Below, piece after piece: positions 6,566 to 15,167 of a DNA stretch of 52,672 nt (within the stretch, counting starts at the first letter, position 1; each line of letters starts with the position of its first letter). The position numbers and the translations under genes are program-made. Source of the DNA: a virus (lineage: Duplodnaviria > Caudoviricetes); the IMG/VR virus record IMGVR_UViG_3300021356_000024, positions 1-52,672 of that record; one strand, 5' to 3'. The notes under the pieces are model-generated. The model saw nothing but the letters and a program-made list of their open reading frames with translations. It was not told where the DNA came from and searched no databases.

Positions 6566-7086
6566 TGCCATCGACACTGACGATTCGAAAAAAAGTAGAT
6601 GACAAAAAGACTATATGGGTACACTCTGCGGATTTGTTTGAGTCTATTCATACGTCCAGAGTAGTCACTGCTAAAGAACTTTCTGATATACTCAAGGAAG
6701 GAAAAATTATTTTAACTCAGAGAAAAAACTTTCTCTCTGATGCCTCGTTTCGCAACTTAAAATTTTTCTTCTCAAAACTTTCTGACCGTAAACCTATTCC
6801 TGTAATCTGTCCAGAAGAACAGTTTTCTCGGTATTGCAAGTCTGATAGAGAACTGAAAGATGAATGGAAGAAAGTATTCGGCGCAGTCGTTGAGACTGGC
6901 GGTTCACGTATCTTCAAACCAGACAATTTTCTTGCGCCTTTAACAAAAGAACATCAATCACTTTTAATTAATACGCCTATCTTCAACCATGATGACTGGT
7001 TCTATACCGCGTTTAACTTATTGACTAAACGCAGAATCGATTATTTCATGGTTTGGCATGAGAACAACTATCATCTAATATCATGA
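6565..7086 (+). CDS. hypothetical protein
   Basis: TAATG coupling; 173 aa. Confidence 0.65.
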   Translation: MPSTLTIRKKVDDKKTIWVHSADLFESIHTSRVVTAKELSDILKEGKIILTQRKNFLSDASFRNLKFFFSKLSDRKPIPVICPEEQFSRYCKSDRELKDEWKKVFGAVVETGGSRIFKPDNFLAPLTKEHQSLLINTPIFNHDDWFYTAFNLLTKRRIDYFMVWHENNYHLIS

Positions 7087-8957
7087 AACCATGGATTGCC
7101 GTGAGCCTTGCAGGCCACGATAACAGCATTACTATCTACGACAATGGTAAATTCTATATGTTTGAATTTGCTAAGGTCTCTGGTATCAAACACCATCATT
7201 TTTCTTGGAAAACACATCCCGAATGGTATGAAGAACGAAAGGTCGGTGAAGAGGTCTATTCGAATATGACCTTTAGAAAATTGTGGGTGAGAGACCCGAA
7301 AAATCCGAATGACCATCGGCTGAAAGAGGTGTGTGACAACGAAATCAGAATTAACAATGAAACTGTGCAAAGGGTTTTAGAACTTGCTGAAGAACAATAC
7401 GGAATCAAAAACGATTTTGAGTACTGCATTTATAAAGGCACGTTTGTAAATCCATTCACAGGTTCACATACATTTGCCTTGAATCAATATAAAAATTTTG
7501 AAGACTTAGAAAATCCTATGGAAGAGTATGAGTTTTATTTTGATACAAAATTAATCAAGTGCGACAACTGGGTTATGTCGAAGTGTTTTCACCATAAAGC
7601 ACACTATTACGTGGCCGCTGTTCAATCTCCTTTTGATAACACATATGCCTGTATCACAGTAGACGGTGGTGGCGACGATGTTGCAACTGTCTGTCACGTA
7701 GTCAAAAACGGTAAATATGGTTTTGCAGAACGAGAAAGATTCTGGGGTCACACTTGGTTGAACTTGAACAGATTCACACAGAATTTCGCAACACCAAACG
7801 CTGGTGTTTTTGTTAAAGGTACTCAGAAAGTTTATCCGCCTCCAGTGAACTTAGCGAATGGTCTTGACTTTGCTGGTAAATTTATGGGATTGGCCGCATA
7901 TGGTGAAGTCGATGAAGGTCTCTATGATATTTTTAGAAAGGCGTTTCTCTATCCCACAACCACCGGATGTCCAATCAAACCATACCTGTTGAATGAAGAA
8001 CTCAAGAAACATAATATTGGTTGTGATCCTGGTAAATCCGTTCTCATGGACTATATCAAAGAAAATAAAATCAATGATGCGAATATGGCCGCTACGGTTC
8101 AAAAAGCATTTGAAGATGACTTCATTGACTTCATCAAGGAAGAAAACGACAAGTTAGGATTAGAATACCACAAAAATCTAATGTTGTGCGGCGGCGTGGC
8201 ATATAACGTATTATTGACTGAGAGAATTAAAAACGAATTAGGTTACAATGTTTACGTGCCTTCTGTGTGTGACGATGCTGGACTGTCACTTGGTATCTTG
8301 ATAAACGAATTGACTGAACACGGACTATATGATGTGAATAAAAAGAAAGTTGATCTCACATTCAGTGGATTCGATATCACAGATAAAAAGAAATTGACAC
8401 AGTATAGAAAACCGAAGAACAGTAGTGTGTCTGAGATTCATGATATGTTACGCAAAGGAAAAGTTATTGGTCTGATACAAGGCAGATGCGAAACAGGACC
8501 TAGAGCGTTGGGCCGAAGGTCGATACTTTGTGATCCTACTTTTCCCAATATGAAAGATATCGTGAATAAAATTAAGAACAGAGAATACTATCGACCGTTC
8601 GCACCTGTATGTACGTATGAAAGTTTTGAAAGATACTTTGATAGTCCTTCAAAAGAAAATCTTGAGTCGATGAACTTTGCTGTCAAAGTAAAACCCGAAT
8701 GGCAGAAAAAATTAAAACCGATTACTCACGCTGACAACACTGCGAGAGTGCAGACGGTTCGAAAACAAAACAATGCTTGGTTCTGGAACTTTCTAAGAGA
8801 CTATGATGGTGTGTTGCTAAATACTTCATTCAATCGATCCGGTAAACCCACGTTAAACTCACTAGAAGACGCCTTTTGGATTTTAGACAACACGGCGCTT
8901 GACGCCTTTGTTTACGTGAACGGAAAGAATATATTGCTTTGGAGAAAGGATGTCTGA
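7083..8957 (+). CDS. carbamoyltransferase (NodU/CmcH family)
   Basis: GHDNS, HHKAH, VDGGGD, GKFMGLAAYG, GGVAYN, DDAGLSLG, ETGPRALGRRSIL, REYYRPFAP, LLNTSFN. Confidence 0.92.
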   Translation: MKPWIAVSLAGHDNSITIYDNGKFYMFEFAKVSGIKHHHFSWKTHPEWYEERKVGEEVYSNMTFRKLWVRDPKNPNDHRLKEVCDNEIRINNETVQRVLELAEEQYGIKNDFEYCIYKGTFVNPFTGSHTFALNQYKNFEDLENPMEEYEFYFDTKLIKCDNWVMSKCFHHKAHYYVAAVQSPFDNTYACITVDGGGDDVATVCHVVKNGKYGFAERERFWGHTWLNLNRFTQNFATPNAGVFVKGTQKVYPPPVNLANGLDFAGKFMGLAAYGEVDEGLYDIFRKAFLYPTTTGCPIKPYLLNEELKKHNIGCDPGKSVLMDYIKENKINDANMAATVQKAFEDDFIDFIKEENDKLGLEYHKNLMLCGGVAYNVLLTERIKNELGYNVYVPSVCDDAGLSLGILINELTEHGLYDVNKKKVDLTFSGFDITDKKKLTQYRKPKNSSVSEIHDMLRKGKVIGLIQGRCETGPRALGRRSILCDPTFPNMKDIVNKIKNREYYRPFAPVCTYESFERYFDSPSKENLESMNFAVKVKPEWQKKLKPITHADNTARVQTVRKQNNAWFWNFLRDYDGVLLNTSFNRSGKPTLNSLEDAFWILDNTALDAFVYVNGKNILLWRKDV

Positions 8958-9765
8958 TAAAGTTACAACAGATATGACTGTGTTTGGTCTGCAACGCAGT
9001 GGTACAAATTTTCTTGAACAATTAATTCGTAGAAACATGAATGGTGCGACCGTGATCAACACGTGGGCAAAAGGTATCTGGAAACATATCTACGACATCG
9101 AAAATAACACACCATTTTCTGATGATAATAATAATTTGAAAAGACGTATACTCGGCCACTGGGGCGGCCAATACAAGTATGACTTGTTACTTCAACAAAA
9201 AATTTTGCCGATTTATATTCACAAACATCCGTATAGTTGGTTAGAAAGTATCGTCAATAAATCGGTTGACATCACAAAGGTATATCCTCAGATAAGTGAG
9301 AATCAGACAAAGAACACTTATTTTCAGTTTGAGAATATCAACCTGATCAGCGCAACAAAGTTGTGGCAGGCACACACTAAATACTGGTATAGTAAAAAAC
9401 AAAAAGATTTGTTTCCTATCTACATTCTCAGTTATGAGAACTTGATACGTGATGAGGCCTCGACACGGCACCACGTTGATGCGATTGCTACTTTCTTTGG
9501 AAAGACCTGCAAGCCGACAAAACAGAACTTGCCGATTGATATACCAGAGAAAGTAGGTCAGTCAGATAAATTTACTGAAGAAAAAAGACAACGTTACAAC
9601 GAAGTGAGAGTAACACACTTTAGTTGGGAACACATTCAAGAGATAAATAAACATTTGGACCGTAATTTTGTTCGTAATATCTGCGGTTACACTCTGTGGA
9701 ACGACGAAGAAACTTACTGGAAACATAAGAAACCAATTGTTATAAATAAAGATGACAAACAATAA
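8950..9765 (+). CDS. sulfotransferase-like protein
   Basis: PAPS-loop-like GLQRSGTNFLEQL; KHPYSWLES; SYENL. Confidence 0.7.
   Translation: MSDKVTTDMTVFGLQRSGTNFLEQLIRRNMNGATVINTWAKGIWKHIYDIENNTPFSDDNNNLKRRILGHWGGQYKYDLLLQQKILPIYIHKHPYSWLESIVNKSVDITKVYPQISENQTKNTYFQFENINLISATKLWQAHTKYWYSKKQKDLFPIYILSYENLIRDEASTRHHVDAIATFFGKTCKPTKQNLPIDIPEKVGQSDKFTEEKRQRYNEVRVTHFSWEHIQEINKHLDRNFVRNICGYTLWNDEETYWKHKKPIVINKDDKQ
9741..9748 (+). promoter_or_regulatory. T4 late promoter
   Basis: exact TATAAATA, 84 nt upstream of ATG 9832. Confidence 0.75.
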
Positions 9766-9767
9766 CA

Positions 9768-9834
9768 CATTGTACAGTTTAGGCTACGGCAGACCTGTGC
9801 GACTAAGGATAAGGTTAAGGCAAACTCCACAATG
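9768..9834 (+). ncRNA. candidate cis-regulatory leader with two similar-loop hairpins
   Basis: GTACAG-[TTTAGGCTACGGCAGAC]-CTGTGC and GGA-[TAAGGTTAAGGCAAAC]-TCC; CATTGT can pair with ACAATG, which contains the start codon. Confidence 0.45.
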
Positions 9835-11580
9835 AAAGACGATAATACTCCTATCGAGGATCTGGGCACTCCTCAAACAAGTGAAACCTCTATTGTATCC
9901 GAAGACGCAAGGTCTGCCGTTGTCCTTTCTTTTGGCCGATTAAATCCTCCCACCTCCGGTCACCAGAAACTTGTTGATAAAATAGTATCGGTTGCTCGTC
10001 GTAAGAAAGCAACGCCGATGTTGTTTATGTCACAATCACAGGACAAAAAGAAAAACCCTCTCTCATACGCCGACAAAGTAAAGTACGCTACAAAAGCATT
10101 TGGTAAGATCGTGCAAAAGTCCAAGGCACGTACTATCATTGAAGTACTGAAAGAACTCACAGGCAAGTACGATGAAGTTACTATCGTAGTTGGCGGCGAC
10201 AGAATTGAAGAGTTTAAGAAACTAATTTCAAAGTACAACGGCAAAGACTATAACTTTAAGAACATTGATTATATGTCCGCTGGCGAACGTGACCCAGACG
10301 CAGATGACGTAACAGGTATGTCTGCATCAAAACTCAGAGGTCATGCTGTTGCGGGCGAATATAAACAATATCGTGCCGGTTTGCCCCGTCGATTCTCGGA
10401 TAGAGATGCGAAGGAAATGTATAATAAAATACGTAGTGCAATGGGTATTTCAGAAGAGATGACATTGCAAGAGGTATTGACCTTTCAACAGCGCATGAAG
10501 AAAAAAATGATGATGCGCCGAATCAAAGGTCGTATCAAGCGTGGTCGTCTCATTGCCAAAAGGCGTTTAGCCAGTCCAGAAAAACTCAAGACCCGATCTG
10601 CCAAGAAGGCTCGTCAGATTATGCGCTCGCGATTGGCCGGCGCACAAGGTAAAAAGTATAATCAATTGCCTTACAGCGCTCGAATGCAGATCGATAAGAA
10701 ACTCAAAAACAAGCAAGCAATCATATCTCGTCTCGCTAAGCGACTGTTGCCAAAAGTACGTGCAGCAGACCGCGCTCGACTCGCAAAACTACGTTCAGGC
10801 GGAACAAAGAAAGAATCATTTGATGTAGAGTACATCCGTTCTGTTGATGAAGTTTTACGCCGAATCGAACGTGAACAAATCTCCGAAGCAGTAGAGAAAA
10901 ACCTGCGAAAGAAAAGTGAGAAGTATGGTGTATCGATCAGTCAACTAAAAGAAAAGTATATCGGCTTCAAGATGGGATACATTGACACCGATGCACAGAC
11001 TGCCGAACAACAGGCCTTTAATTCTTTGAATGTGATGTTAGCAAATGAACAGAAGACACGTATGCAAGAAGCATATGATTATCACATTCAGGAAGGCATC
11101 TCGTTTGTCGAAAACGTTTATCGTGTTGGTTCAATGAACTACTTTAAACTGATCGAAGAAGCAAAGAAACGATTTGAGGCAGGTGAATATAATCCTGATC
11201 CTTTTGAAGCAGAGTTTTTGCAAACAGATATTGGCGAGTTTGCCATGTATGAAGGCGAACACGTACCTCTCGACTGTCCGATGGAAGAACCAATTGCAGA
11301 GGAAGAAAAGAAGCCTCTTGGTAAACCCATGCGTGGTGGTCCCAAAAAGTTTTATGTTTACGTAAAAGATCCATCAACAGGCAATATTAAGAAAGTTACT
11401 TTCGGCGATACTACTGGCCTGAAAGTTAAGTTAGACGATCCTAAGGCACGTAAATCTTTTGCTGCTCGTCATCAATGTTCAACACAAAACGACCGAACTA
11501 AGGCGGCATATTGGGCATGTAGATTGCCACGTTATGCGAAACAATTAGGCCTATCAGGCGGTGGTAATTTCTTCTGGTGA
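9832..11580 (+). CDS. HIGH-type (cytidylyltransferase-like) nucleotidyltransferase fused to basic, acidic and DUF6321-like modules
   Basis: SFGRLNPPTSGHQKL, KNPLSY, VVGGDR, SAGERD, MSASKLR; C-terminal RKSFAARHQC...AAYWAC. Confidence 0.8.
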   Translation: MKDDNTPIEDLGTPQTSETSIVSEDARSAVVLSFGRLNPPTSGHQKLVDKIVSVARRKKATPMLFMSQSQDKKKNPLSYADKVKYATKAFGKIVQKSKARTIIEVLKELTGKYDEVTIVVGGDRIEEFKKLISKYNGKDYNFKNIDYMSAGERDPDADDVTGMSASKLRGHAVAGEYKQYRAGLPRRFSDRDAKEMYNKIRSAMGISEEMTLQEVLTFQQRMKKKMMMRRIKGRIKRGRLIAKRRLASPEKLKTRSAKKARQIMRSRLAGAQGKKYNQLPYSARMQIDKKLKNKQAIISRLAKRLLPKVRAADRARLAKLRSGGTKKESFDVEYIRSVDEVLRRIEREQISEAVEKNLRKKSEKYGVSISQLKEKYIGFKMGYIDTDAQTAEQQAFNSLNVMLANEQKTRMQEAYDYHIQEGISFVENVYRVGSMNYFKLIEEAKKRFEAGEYNPDPFEAEFLQTDIGEFAMYEGEHVPLDCPMEEPIAEEEKKPLGKPMRGGPKKFYVYVKDPSTGNIKKVTFGDTTGLKVKLDDPKARKSFAARHQCSTQNDRTKAAYWACRLPRYAKQLGLSGGGNFFW

Positions 11581-15159: not shown

Positions 15160-15167
15160 TATAAATA
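15160..15167 (+). promoter_or_regulatory. T4 late promoter
   Basis: exact TATAAATA. Confidence 0.8.

Follow-up and report, generated by a model that had tools for sequence, protein, structure and literature searches.

The two hairpins that precede the gene starting at 9832 in the window (the whole 52,672-nucleotide stretch of Caudoviricetes DNA that was analysed, IMG/VR record IMGVR_UViG_3300021356_000024) are two copies of a small RNA structure that had not been catalogued before and that is kept at a single genomic position by many uncultured T4-like phages. The element most likely controls the amount of one late protein. The existence of a structured RNA element of this type is near certain. 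The hairpins are considered real because of the comparison across phages, since the folding energy alone is unremarkable (minimum free energy, MFE, z −0.76; 41 of 200 shuffles fold equally well). The initial annotation had described a late promoter, two hairpins with near-identical loops and a start codon, and every one of these features was found where it had been placed:

9741–9748, + strand: −10 element of a T4-type late promoter, TATAAATA, exact match
9768–9773, + strand: CAUUGU, 5′ arm of an alternative pairing in the predicted MFE fold, which would bury the start codon
9772–9800, + strand: hairpin 1, predicted −8.0 kcal/mol
9772–9777 and 9795–9800: outer stem of hairpin 1, GTACAG/CTGTGC, 6 bp with one G-U
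9778–9782: UUUAG, 5′ internal-loop strand of hairpin 1
9781–9794: 14-nt core of hairpin 1, AGGCTACGGCAGAC
9783–9784 and 9789–9790: inner helix of hairpin 1, G9783-C9790 and C9784-G9789
9785–9788: UACG, tetraloop of hairpin 1
9791–9794: AGAC, 3′ internal-loop strand of hairpin 1
9807–9828, + strand: hairpin 2, adjoining the ribosome-binding site (RBS), predicted −2.1 kcal/mol
9807–9809 and 9826–9828: outer stem of hairpin 2, GGA/UCC
9810–9813: UAAG, 5′ internal-loop strand of hairpin 2
9812–9825: 14-nt core of hairpin 2, AGGTTAAGGCAAAC
9814–9815 and 9820–9821: inner helix of hairpin 2, G9814-C9821 and U9815-G9820
9816–9819: UAAG, tetraloop of hairpin 2
9817–9820, + strand: AAGG, Shine–Dalgarno (SD)-like, spanning tetraloop bases and the 3′ side of the inner helix of hairpin 2
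9822–9825: AAAC, 3′ internal-loop strand of hairpin 2
9832, + strand: start codon ATG
9832–11580, + strand: gene for a 582-aa protein, the proposed target of control (phrog_3041, 1.5e-68; phrog_395, 5.3e-43)
10450–10794, + strand: conserved, strongly basic domain of four helices in that protein, about 110 aa (alignment A3, 55 sequences)

The promoter element falls in the 3′-terminal part of the preceding gene (8950–9765, sulfotransferase-like) and, by analogy with T4 biology, would be active as a promoter. The first stem begins 23 nt after it, i.e., it is not 5′-terminal in the window. The model of the element (R1) matched hairpin 2 at 9799–9836 with 29.3 bits (E 6e-7) and the core of hairpin 1 at 9779–9794 with 14.5 bits, the outer stem of hairpin 1 being out of register with the model because of an extra U. 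This stem carries a compensatory change in leader L001 (GTGCAG/CTGCGC), and RNAalifold of 18 two-hairpin leaders recovered hairpin 2 together with its inner helix. The core of hairpin 2 ends 6 nt before the ATG, and the AAGG within the hairpin, which presumably serves as the SD, stands at a long distance of 11 nt from it. Two RNA-library contigs cover the leader (X17, 9684–9950; X19, 9782–9942); being contigs, they do not mark 5′ ends and may derive from DNA. From the window alone, the evidence against chance was weak: TATAAATA occurs five times against 1.78 expected, with 2 of 100 shuffles reaching five, and when at most two mismatches were allowed, the degenerate loop pattern matched 5 times against 1.43 expected.

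Compared across phages, the unit is about 30 nt long. Its outer stem is short and unconstrained in sequence and is followed by a symmetric 4×4 internal loop of fixed letters (UWAG on the 5′ side and ARAC on the 3′ side; several "invariant" letters of the motif were fixed beforehand by the search pattern), a 2-bp helix and a tetraloop. The 14-nt loops of the window are indeed near-identical, as first described, but they are not open loops, each containing a covarying 2-bp helix with a tetraloop. With the core pattern leaving paired positions free, 122 of 149 distinct 38-mers had both inner base pairs together with at least 3 bp of outer stem, a combination estimated at less than 2% for random flanks. 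In 122 distinct units, all seven modelled pairs had compensatory changes on both sides (299 cells, a count that overstates independent events since many sequences are related). The covariation score of these units, which had been preselected for the inner pairs and three outer pairs, was 0.776 against 0.229 ± 0.015 after shuffling; none of 500 shuffles reached 0.776, and slid partners gave at most 0.114. Variation was broad: by their closing 3-bp stem, 165 distinct units fall into 18 types, and by their inner helix into 9; the tetraloops are UAAG, UACG, CAAG, UUAG and similar. Position 3 of the tetraloop was A or C in 163 of these 165 units. G-U pairs were also present, including 20 at the inner pair, and the fold is therefore that of the sense-strand RNA. 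A protein site at the DNA level or a cruciform was rejected, since the arms vary freely yet stay complementary and include G-U pairs.

The unit is found ahead of the homologous gene both in uncultured T4-like phages and in the cultured Stenotrophomonas phage DLP6 (KU682439.2, 53999–54035). Conservation of the loop motif upstream of homologues, proposed at the outset as a check, was confirmed at 16 of 30 IMG/VR homologue loci in which the N-terminal part of the gene is covered, in addition to DLP6. Overall, 179 of 268 IMG/VR loci examined carry the motif, and two collection scans gave at least 119 and at least 120 stretches with it. When both strands of 80 gene-selected loci, 484,847 bases in all, were searched with the model, all 18 matches fell on the strand of the gene, and they sit immediately 5′ of the gene wherever its start is included. 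There are two matches only in the window, and exactly one locus in each of five genomes that are 93–100% complete. Each locus holds one to three copies in tandem. By a strict criterion, which missed a degenerate second copy in some cases, 82 of 128 leaders have a single hairpin, and duplication is not essential. The proposal of duplicated binding loops holds as regards conserved recognition units 5′ of the nucleotidyltransferase gene.

A scan of the genomes of 185,579 species returned four matches, three in phage-like contigs binned in metagenome-assembled genomes (MAGs), 5′ of the same gene, and one by chance inside a Methanobacterium coding region; a host-derived motif was rejected on these grounds. 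The motif was absent from the five cultured cyanophages scanned, and weak model matches in Pseudomonas phage Ettore (E about 0.1) and at locus L037 (E 0.034) were left uncounted. The association with late promoters was evaluated in a promoter-free sample of 94 hairpin contexts, where TATAAATA was found within 45 nt upstream in 63 and NATAAATA in 73. The loop core starts 8–30 nt past TATAAATA, commonly 9–16, and the stem presumably starts at, or a few nucleotides past, the expected T4-type start site. A general late-gene signal was discarded, because there is one locus per genome and the other TATAAATA sites in the window have no hairpin motif.

The protein encoded downstream in the window combines three parts: a cytidylyltransferase-like HxGH domain (about aa 25–215), which matches PF01467 at E 0.0016 without reaching the curated cut-off; the conserved basic helical domain; and, at the C-terminus, a DUF5824-like module. 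Homologous proteins are only about 35–45% identical. Among the matches listed in a sample that was not gene-selected, 115 of 119 downstream ORFs group with the window's proteins in one family. The promoter-free contexts were followed by a cytidylyltransferase domain in 58 cases, by DUF5824 only in 23, by neither in 11 and by no ORF in 2. The nucleotidyltransferase is the commonest downstream domain, within 400 nt in 78 of 108 leaders, and a cytidylyltransferase domain is missing from the downstream sequence available in 26 of 108 distinct leaders; the first genes of leaders without it encode DUF5824, LysM, DUF6267 or DUF6321. The gene headed by the element was always that of a late multidomain protein of the cytidylyltransferase/DUF5824 type.

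The position of the hairpins relative to the start codon points to translation initiation. In 62 of 100 distinct leaders (class A), the last core ends 2–10 nt before the start codon and an SD-like AAGGA or ACGGA lies within the last hairpin, with no other SD; the apex word is AAGGAA in 27 of these leaders, ACGGAA in 18 and similar in the rest. RBS-proximal copies prefer an inner helix ending in GA, which completes AAGGA. In the other 38 leaders, the hairpin lies 12–52 nt from the start codon and a separate SD-like word follows it in 36, so direct SD masking is not the whole story there. The window shows the operator-type feature, a hairpin overlapping or abutting the SD and the start codon.

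Starting from the observed structure, conservation, strand, gene and promoter association and SD embedding, the reading we favour, at an even chance of being correct, is a translational operator that works when bound by a factor. A partner that recognises sequence would be expected to fix the internal-loop letters and leave the stems free, as observed, and the hairpins are weak enough (−8.0 and −2.1 kcal/mol) for a ligand to tip the fold. A T4-type late promoter would give a late mRNA with the element at its 5′ end, whose fixed internal loop would be the docking site of a putative trans-acting factor. In the copy nearest the gene, with SD-like AAGG(A) in the apex and its end a few bases before the start codon, the bound factor would hold the weak hairpin shut, and 30S entry would be blocked or set. 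The upstream copy may provide a second, cooperative site, and may also cap the 5′ end of the transcript. We infer that the factor is probably a phage-encoded protein, and likewise the direction of control on translation.

The initial annotation had also suggested that the site binds modules of the downstream protein itself, and the basic domain was the module considered. The domain was modelled by AlphaFold2 as four helices (pLDDT 91) and belongs to no Pfam family; it is a candidate nucleic-acid-binding module, its link to RNA being conjectural. It is encoded downstream of 85 of 108 distinct leaders, and about 14 leaders with at least 2 kb of downstream sequence lack it, as does the 105.7-kb record of locus L119 (63% complete), which has the motif. 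Conversely, the domain occurs without the RNA motif in Melnitz (in the ORF just upstream of the homologue), in HTVC008M (115015–115329) and at loci L022, L037, L045 and L054. No match was obtained between the domain model and known RNA-binding folds (Foldseek best E 2.8). In a wide VIA-align search the top Z was 5.9 and HMG-box folds scored 4.4–5.5, values below what is meaningful for helical models, and the ESM Atlas returned viral hypothetical clusters only. Searching PDB chains and NCBIfam with the product sequence was uninformative. Autoregulation by the basic domain is weakly supported at best, and the suggested autoregulatory site lost weight with this imperfect co-occurrence in both directions.

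A fold that competes with the two hairpins was also evaluated. In it, CATTGT (9768–9773) pairs with ACAATG (9829–9834), and AGTTT pairs with AAACT. This long-range fold is the predicted MFE in the window, at −14.8 against −10.1 kcal/mol for the two-hairpin fold and with pair probabilities of 0.96–0.99, and it is predicted as well for the identical leader of a near-identical relative (L195). Nearest-neighbour energies, in turn, probably undervalue purine-rich internal loops. The CATTGT/ACAATG pairing is missing in the nearest distinct leaders, L001 and L003/L117 (the closest clade), and in L003/L117 the 5′ arm would fall at or before the expected transcript start. The AGUUU/AAACU pairing arises from the motif's own fixed letters, and RNAalifold of the 18 two-hairpin leaders yielded the hairpin elements with no long-range pairs. 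The competing fold was thus reproduced as a prediction, and its conservation was not, the pairing being confined to this phage and L195. A two-state switch built on the CATTGT/ACAATG pairing, alternating between the two-hairpin fold, with the start codon free, and the fold that buries it, is accordingly not supported, and we regard such a switch as highly improbable in spite of the predicted MFE. Pairing between hairpins (AGGCU of copy 1 with AGUCU/AGCC of copy 2 in some leaders) was set aside; it has a central mismatch in the window, L135 and L152, and was treated as a by-product of the near-palindromic motif letters.

Alternatively, the element could act without any factor, as a 5′-terminal cap guarding the late mRNA against 5′-end-dependent decay, with a proximal copy that displays SD bases in its stable tetraloop and tunes ribosome loading. 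The core commonly 9–16 nt after TATAAATA, with the stem at or near the expected start site, would suit a cap, as would the SD-like bases in the apex of the 62 class A leaders and a tetraloop position 3 that fits the stable YNMG class in 163 of 165 units. A cap or scaffold, however, needs a shape and not eight fixed internal-loop letters across proteins of such low identity; moreover, other late genes of the same genomes do without the element and the window stem is not 5′-terminal, so this reading is considered rather unlikely. It is very unlikely that the nascent hairpins make the late transcription complex resist termination along the long operon, directly or via a basic peptide, as lambda nut/boxB does with N and the HK022 put RNAs do. 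The element is always near a promoter, at one site per genome heading a multi-gene late unit, it has one to three stem-loops, and the first product has an arginine/lysine-rich helical domain, all as antitermination would have it. Closeness to the start codon and the embedded SD (62 of 100) favour translation over transcription, and we know of no precedent for hairpin antitermination in T4-type late transcription.

Direct sensing by the RNA is the remaining family of explanations. In a small riboswitch, the internal loop would bind a metabolite or ion, such as a nucleotide related to the enzyme, and stabilise the SD-holding hairpin, tandem copies sensing cooperatively. Fixed unpaired letters within covarying stems, the 5′ UTR position, the SD overlap, the tight tie to one gene family, the occasional tandem copies and the nucleotidyltransferase within 400 nt in 78 of 108 leaders are all as expected of a riboswitch. 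On the other hand, the downstream genes encode multidomain late phage proteins and not a metabolic pathway, the SD is outside the hairpin in 38 of 100 leaders with no alternative pairing evident, a 4×4 loop in a 30-nt hairpin is at the small end of known aptamers, and no Rfam riboswitch matches. The 26 of 108 leaders lacking a cytidylyltransferase in the downstream sequence available likewise speak against it and weaken the earlier suggestion of a riboswitch for a nucleotide substrate; we hold a riboswitch to be quite improbable. Slightly less improbable, and still doubtful, is a phage-only sensory RNA whose 4×4 loop directly binds a small molecule, an ion, or the host ribosome or RNA polymerase. 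If so, T4-like phages of many hosts would gate a late multidomain enzyme, probably virion-delivered, by the state of the infected cell, and tandem copies would give a cooperative response.

Apart from the long-known operators of T4 and a few cyanophage motifs, very few conserved regulatory RNAs have, to our knowledge, been described in T4-like phages. The present element is small, its covariation is clear, and it occurs widely in environmental phages. It marks a single late gene family, in which the nucleotidyltransferase is combined with DUF5824, LysM and other modules, and offers a handle on the control of these late proteins and on which genes belong together. With one cultured carrier, Stenotrophomonas phage DLP6, the partner and the mechanism are directly testable. 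A 30-nt hairpin with fixed recognition letters might also become a portable RNA tag once the partner is known.

The element had been put forward as belonging to no recognised family, and this agrees with Rfam 15, where cmscan of 9000–10500 on both strands gave no match at E ≤ 10; the families covered include the preQ1 and NAD+ riboswitches and T4 gene 32 elements. The motifs manA, wcaG and PhotoRC-II are structured 5′ UTR candidates described mainly from marine metagenomes and T4-like phages (Weinberg et al. 2010, PMC2864571). They differ from the present element in structure and in the genes they accompany, and although each has an Rfam entry, none matches the leader. When the region and two leaders were compared by megablast and blastn with 50,697 named phage records, no match was obtained, at the limited sensitivity that short queries allow. 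No description of the leader was found in the searchable literature text, which does not extend to subscription papers and supplementary motif lists.

Among known tandem elements, guanidine-II (mini-ykkC, RF01068) has two tandem hairpins with ACGR tetraloops closed by C-G. In both cases, small hairpins whose conserved apical letters are nearly identical lie in tandem just ahead of a start codon, and their stems covary. Here, in contrast, there are an internal loop and Y-N-A/C-G tetraloops, single copies are common, no Rfam match exists, and late phage multidomain genes follow instead of transporters or guanidine-related genes. Membership was rejected, since the tetraloops are not ACGR and sit on a 2-bp helix, and 82 of 128 leaders are single-hairpin under the strict criterion. 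In the E. coli thrS operator, two similar leader hairpins that mimic the tRNA anticodon arm form a bipartite site for one regulator. It shares with the present leader a hairpin adjoining the SD and a regulated enzyme with a nucleotide-binding fold, whereas no anticodon-arm mimicry is evident here.

The late switch of T4 genes e and soc has, as here, a T4-type TATAAATA promoter and a leader hairpin near the RBS of a late gene. There, the promoter lies inside the RBS-masking hairpin, so that the late RNA lacks the masking arm, whereas in the window it lies upstream of all arms and the late RNA holds the whole structure. A switch of that type was rejected because TATAAATA lies ahead of both 5′ arms, which start at 9768 and 9772. 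The favoured mechanism is of the type known from T4 gene 43 (DNA polymerase) and from the MS2 replicase gene with its MS2/R17 coat-protein operator, where the protein, once bound, holds the hairpin and restricts initiation. In sequence and structure the present element does not resemble the gene 43 and MS2 operators, in which neither the symmetric 4×4 loop below a 2-bp helix and tetraloop nor the frequent tandem arrangement is found, and membership is not claimed. Nevertheless, the element is like them a short leader hairpin at the RBS, with few fixed unpaired letters and an otherwise free stem, present once per genome before one gene.

The leader, between a predicted late promoter (9741-9748) and the ATG at 9832, carries two predicted hairpins (copy 1, 9772-9800; copy 2, 9807-9828) and is set among the following genes:

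7083-8957, + strand, carbamoyltransferase of the NodU/CmcH type (PF16861, 4.6e-49)
8950-9765, + strand, sulfotransferase-like protein (PF00685, 3.7e-06)
9832-11580, + strand, cytidylyltransferase-like protein of 582 aa with an HxGH domain (phrog_3041, 1.5e-68)
between the 582-aa gene and 11862, + strand, ORF of 90 aa
11862-13454, + strand, DUF5824 protein of 530 aa

The middle of the 582-aa protein is very basic, and the protein shares a C-terminal module with the 530-aa protein. Its PF01467 match (E 0.0016) is under Pfam's cut-off, and its nearest named relatives, from Methylophilales phage Melnitz and Pelagibacter phage HTVC008M, share about 50% amino-acid identity. The carbamoyltransferase and sulfotransferase-like pair directly 5' of it could together make up a cassette for small-molecule, glycan or DNA modification. 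The DNA is a complete IMG/VR virus record of 52,672 bases from a T4-like myovirus, with an estimated completeness of 29%, and near-identical DNA was found in metagenomes from seawater, salt-marsh, estuary and wetland (16 runs with at least half of the sampled window words, 4 of which may be the record's source). Metatranscriptome libraries from two studies yielded contigs over the leader, X17 (9684-9950) and X19 (9782-9942); X17 begins 5' of the late promoter, which would point to either read-through transcription or carried-over DNA. A second exact TATAAATA, at 15160-15167, lies 34 nt 5' of an ORF (97 aa, good SD-like AAGAGGAAA) and, judging from its sequence, is likely a late promoter lacking any leader hairpin.

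The leader features listed in the initial annotation were all found in place. From the window by itself the leader would not stand out. Its minimum free energy is ordinary relative to shuffles (z -0.76), and hairpins 1 and 2 (-8.0 and -2.1 kcal/mol) are weak under nearest-neighbour rules, which probably undervalue purine-rich internal loops. The loop pattern is confined to this leader across the record, where a covariance model run with filters off gave two matches only (9799-9836, 29.3 bits; 9779-9794, 14.5 bits).

Conservation of the loop motif 5' of homologous genes was confirmed with a gene-selected sample of 80 IMG/VR loci coding for relatives of the 582-aa protein. The protein match extends to the N-terminus in 30 of them, and 16 of these 30 carry a late-promoter word and then one or two hairpins sharing a 16-nt core immediately 5' of the start codon, in front of proteins that are only about 37-59% identical. 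In the remaining 14 the gene directly adjoins or overlaps its upstream neighbour, so there is no leader. Over the 80 loci the covariance model matched 17 at E < 1e-4, plus one weak match, with all 18 on the gene's strand and none on the opposite strand (484,847 bases). Nine named phage genomes were scanned whole and only Stenotrophomonas phage DLP6 was positive, with the element at 53999-54035 (24.3 bits) directly 5' of a 'cytitidyltransferase' gene; Ettore gave weak matches only, and the element was not found in Melnitz, HTVC008M, syn9, S-BM3, P-TIM68, S-SRM01 or S-H34.

What had been read as an open loop is structured, as seen when 122 distinct units were aligned in register. An outer stem of 3-6 bp, free in sequence (18 closing triplet types among at least 165 distinct units, the CAG/CTG count being inflated by the scan pattern with that stem), encloses a symmetric internal loop (5' U-W-A-G, 3' A-R-A-C), a 2-bp inner helix and a tetraloop. 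Among the 165 distinct units listed, the inner helix covaries as UC/GA (64), GC/GC (54), GC/GU (27), CC/GG (8), GU/GC (5), AC/GU (4) and 3 singletons. The tetraloops in the same units are UAAG (62), UACG (54), CAAG (19), UUAG (11), CACG (7), CUAG (5), UUCG (4) and 3 singletons, with A or C in 163/165 at position 3, which the search pattern left free; their letters fit the stable YNMG class. Both-side changes occur at 7/7 modelled pairs of the alignment (299 cells, which are not independent events, as changes are common to relatives), and the covariation score is 0.776 versus 0.229 shuffled (0/500 reach 0.776) and at most 0.114 with slid partners. These values are for units chosen because they form the two inner pairs and three outer ones, with 11 atypical-core units dropped and seven 'invariant' columns preset by the search pattern; the unbiased figure is the presence of both helices in 122 of 149 distinct core matches. 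The G-U pairs and the constant orientation with the gene assign the fold to the RNA of the sense strand. Small departures were seen in copy 2 of L001, a locus of the closest clade (AAUC instead of AAAC), in DLP6 (5' loop strand one letter shorter) and in window copy 1 (an additional U). Another short element, CTC-TTAGGATCRGCAAAAC-GYTTTGCTTG, recurs in at least 8 variants at several of the IMG/VR loci; it forms a hairpin from GCAAAAC and its complement, with TTAGG...AAAC letters as in the leader motif and different helices.

Pattern scans of IMG/VR returned at least 119 stretches with late promoter plus core, and at least 120 with the core in a CAG/CTG stem, promoter not required. At least one qualifying hairpin is present in 179 of 268 collected loci, as at least 165 distinct 38-mers. 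Among the matches listed, 115/119 ORFs downstream of promoter plus core join one single-linkage family that includes the window's two proteins. The promoter-free sample, 94 distinct contexts among the matches listed, has TATAAATA within 45 nt upstream in 63 and NATAAATA in 73; the downstream ORF encodes a cytidylyltransferase domain in 58 contexts and only DUF5824-like modules in 23; by BLAST it has neither in 11, and 2 contexts have no ORF. Pfam scans of 8 first genes that BLAST left outside the cytidylyltransferase class gave divergent CTP_transf_like, DUF5824, LysM, DUF6267 or DUF6321, and no Pfam match for 2 of the 8. Of 108 distinct leaders among the matches listed, 78 are followed by a cytidylyltransferase domain within 400 nt and 4 by one located later in the same transcription unit; no such domain was found 3' of the other 26, where the downstream sequence in several cases exceeds 5 kb. 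The varied first genes suggest that these multidomain late proteins form a family that has been shuffled. At L113/L161/L242/L263 and L119, the leader is followed in some phages by a DUF6267 gene, the cytidylyltransferase gene coming about 1.2 kb further, and in others by a gene whose 960-aa product combines DUF5824 with two LysM domains.

Each of five near-complete genomes (93-100% complete, 150-199 kb) has a single element locus, so the element is gene-specific, and a general late-gene signal is ruled out. Three tandem copies precede the same gene in L222, L223/L260 and L237; one clade (L214-L218 and others) carries only one copy, whose inner helix contains a G-G mismatch and whose 5-bp outer stem stops 2-5 nt before the ATG. 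A scan of 185,579 prokaryote species, one genome each, gave four motif matches, three on phage-like contigs in metagenome-assembled genomes 5' of the same gene and one by chance inside a coding region; thus the motif was not borrowed from any cellular RNA found there. The phage-like contigs L288 and L289 are short, carry leader and gene, and sit in assemblies labelled Crocinitomicaceae and Cytophagaceae; L291 (141.7 kb, 'uncultured bacterium' bin) resembles an entire phage genome. Their binning is either a weak host hint or an artefact.

The position relative to the start codon was followed in 100 distinct leaders with a called start among the matches listed. In 62 the final core stops 2-10 nt 5' of the start codon, the apex reading AAGGAA (27), ACGGAA (18), ACGGCA (6), AAGGCA (4) or similar, and another Shine-Dalgarno word would not fit. 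In the other 38 the gap is 12-52 nt, some having a degenerate second hairpin missed by the search pattern, and a separate SD-like word is present in 36. Putative ribosome-binding copies prefer the inner helix UC/GA, completing AAGGA, and upstream copies GC/GC or GC/GU. In the window, the proximal copy places AAGG (9817-9820) 11 nt from the ATG.

It is thus established that the leader hairpin is a conserved, structured, sense-strand RNA element, that it sits in the 5' leader of genes from a single late family, with one locus in each genome, and that its proximal copy usually embeds the predicted ribosome-binding site. Because the internal-loop letters are fixed while the stems vary freely, a sequence-specific partner may dock on the internal loop, and from its position the hairpin would control translation initiation. 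The classic examples in phages are operators bound by a protein. Partner-bound control of this operator type, judged from sequence and analogy, has about an even chance of being correct. A 5' cap that displays the SD without any factor is a doubtful alternative, a small riboswitch is unlikely, and a nut/put-like transcription element is more unlikely still.

The initial annotation had proposed a two-state switch in which CATTGT (9768-9773) pairs with ACAATG (9829-9834), and AGTTT with AAACT, burying the start codon. This fold is indeed the predicted minimum for the window leader (-14.8 kcal/mol, the two-hairpin fold having -10.1 kcal/mol) and for the identical L195 leader, but it is not conserved elsewhere. 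Within the closest clade, neither of the other two distinct leaders (L001 and L003/L117) has the outer CAUUGU/ACAAUG pairing, whose 5' arm would fall at or before the expected transcript start in L003/L117, and the AGUUU/AAACU pairing is a by-product of fixed motif letters. RNAalifold on 18 two-hairpin leaders gave no long-range pair, recovering hairpin 2 and both inner helices; the outer stem of hairpin 1, evident in the 122-unit alignment, did not appear there because the alignment was shifted by one base. The switch is therefore not accepted as a conserved mechanism and is very improbable.

For the operator-type reading, a candidate partner is the very basic segment, roughly 110 aa long (window 10450-10794), that is well conserved among the downstream proteins (mean column identity 51%; invariant R, A, G, Y and D). 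Its AlphaFold2 model has four helices (pLDDT 91), with no Pfam family and no convincing match among solved folds. The domain is encoded 3' of 85/108 distinct leaders among the matches listed, about 9 of the other 23 having too little sequence, and at 5 of 22 motif-less homologue loci checked. Here it is fused within the cytidylyltransferase proteins; in two phages without the RNA motif it is a stand-alone ORF of 130-136 aa:

HTVC008M, NC_020484.1, 115015-115329, stand-alone basic-domain ORF
Melnitz, locus L202, 1070-1462, stand-alone basic-domain ORF

Conversely, the 105.7-kb record of L119 (63% complete) has the motif and lacks the domain. Since the link breaks both ways, autoregulation through the basic domain is a lead, not a finding.

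No Rfam 15 family matched the leader, in agreement with the initial annotation, including manA, wcaG and PhotoRC-II, which PMC2864571 lists as RNA motifs of marine T4-like phages. The literature search, with supplementary files and subscription journals outside its scope, found no description of it. It differs from the late switch of the T4 gene e type, as the promoter here is upstream of the entire structure. Its tandem hairpins superficially resemble the guanidine-II riboswitch, and it would work most like the T4 gene 43 and MS2 operators; with neither does it share testable defining features beyond a hairpin at the ribosome-binding site. In our assessment it is a new family within a familiar class of RNA, the cis-regulatory leader hairpin, and its architecture is both unusual and well defined.
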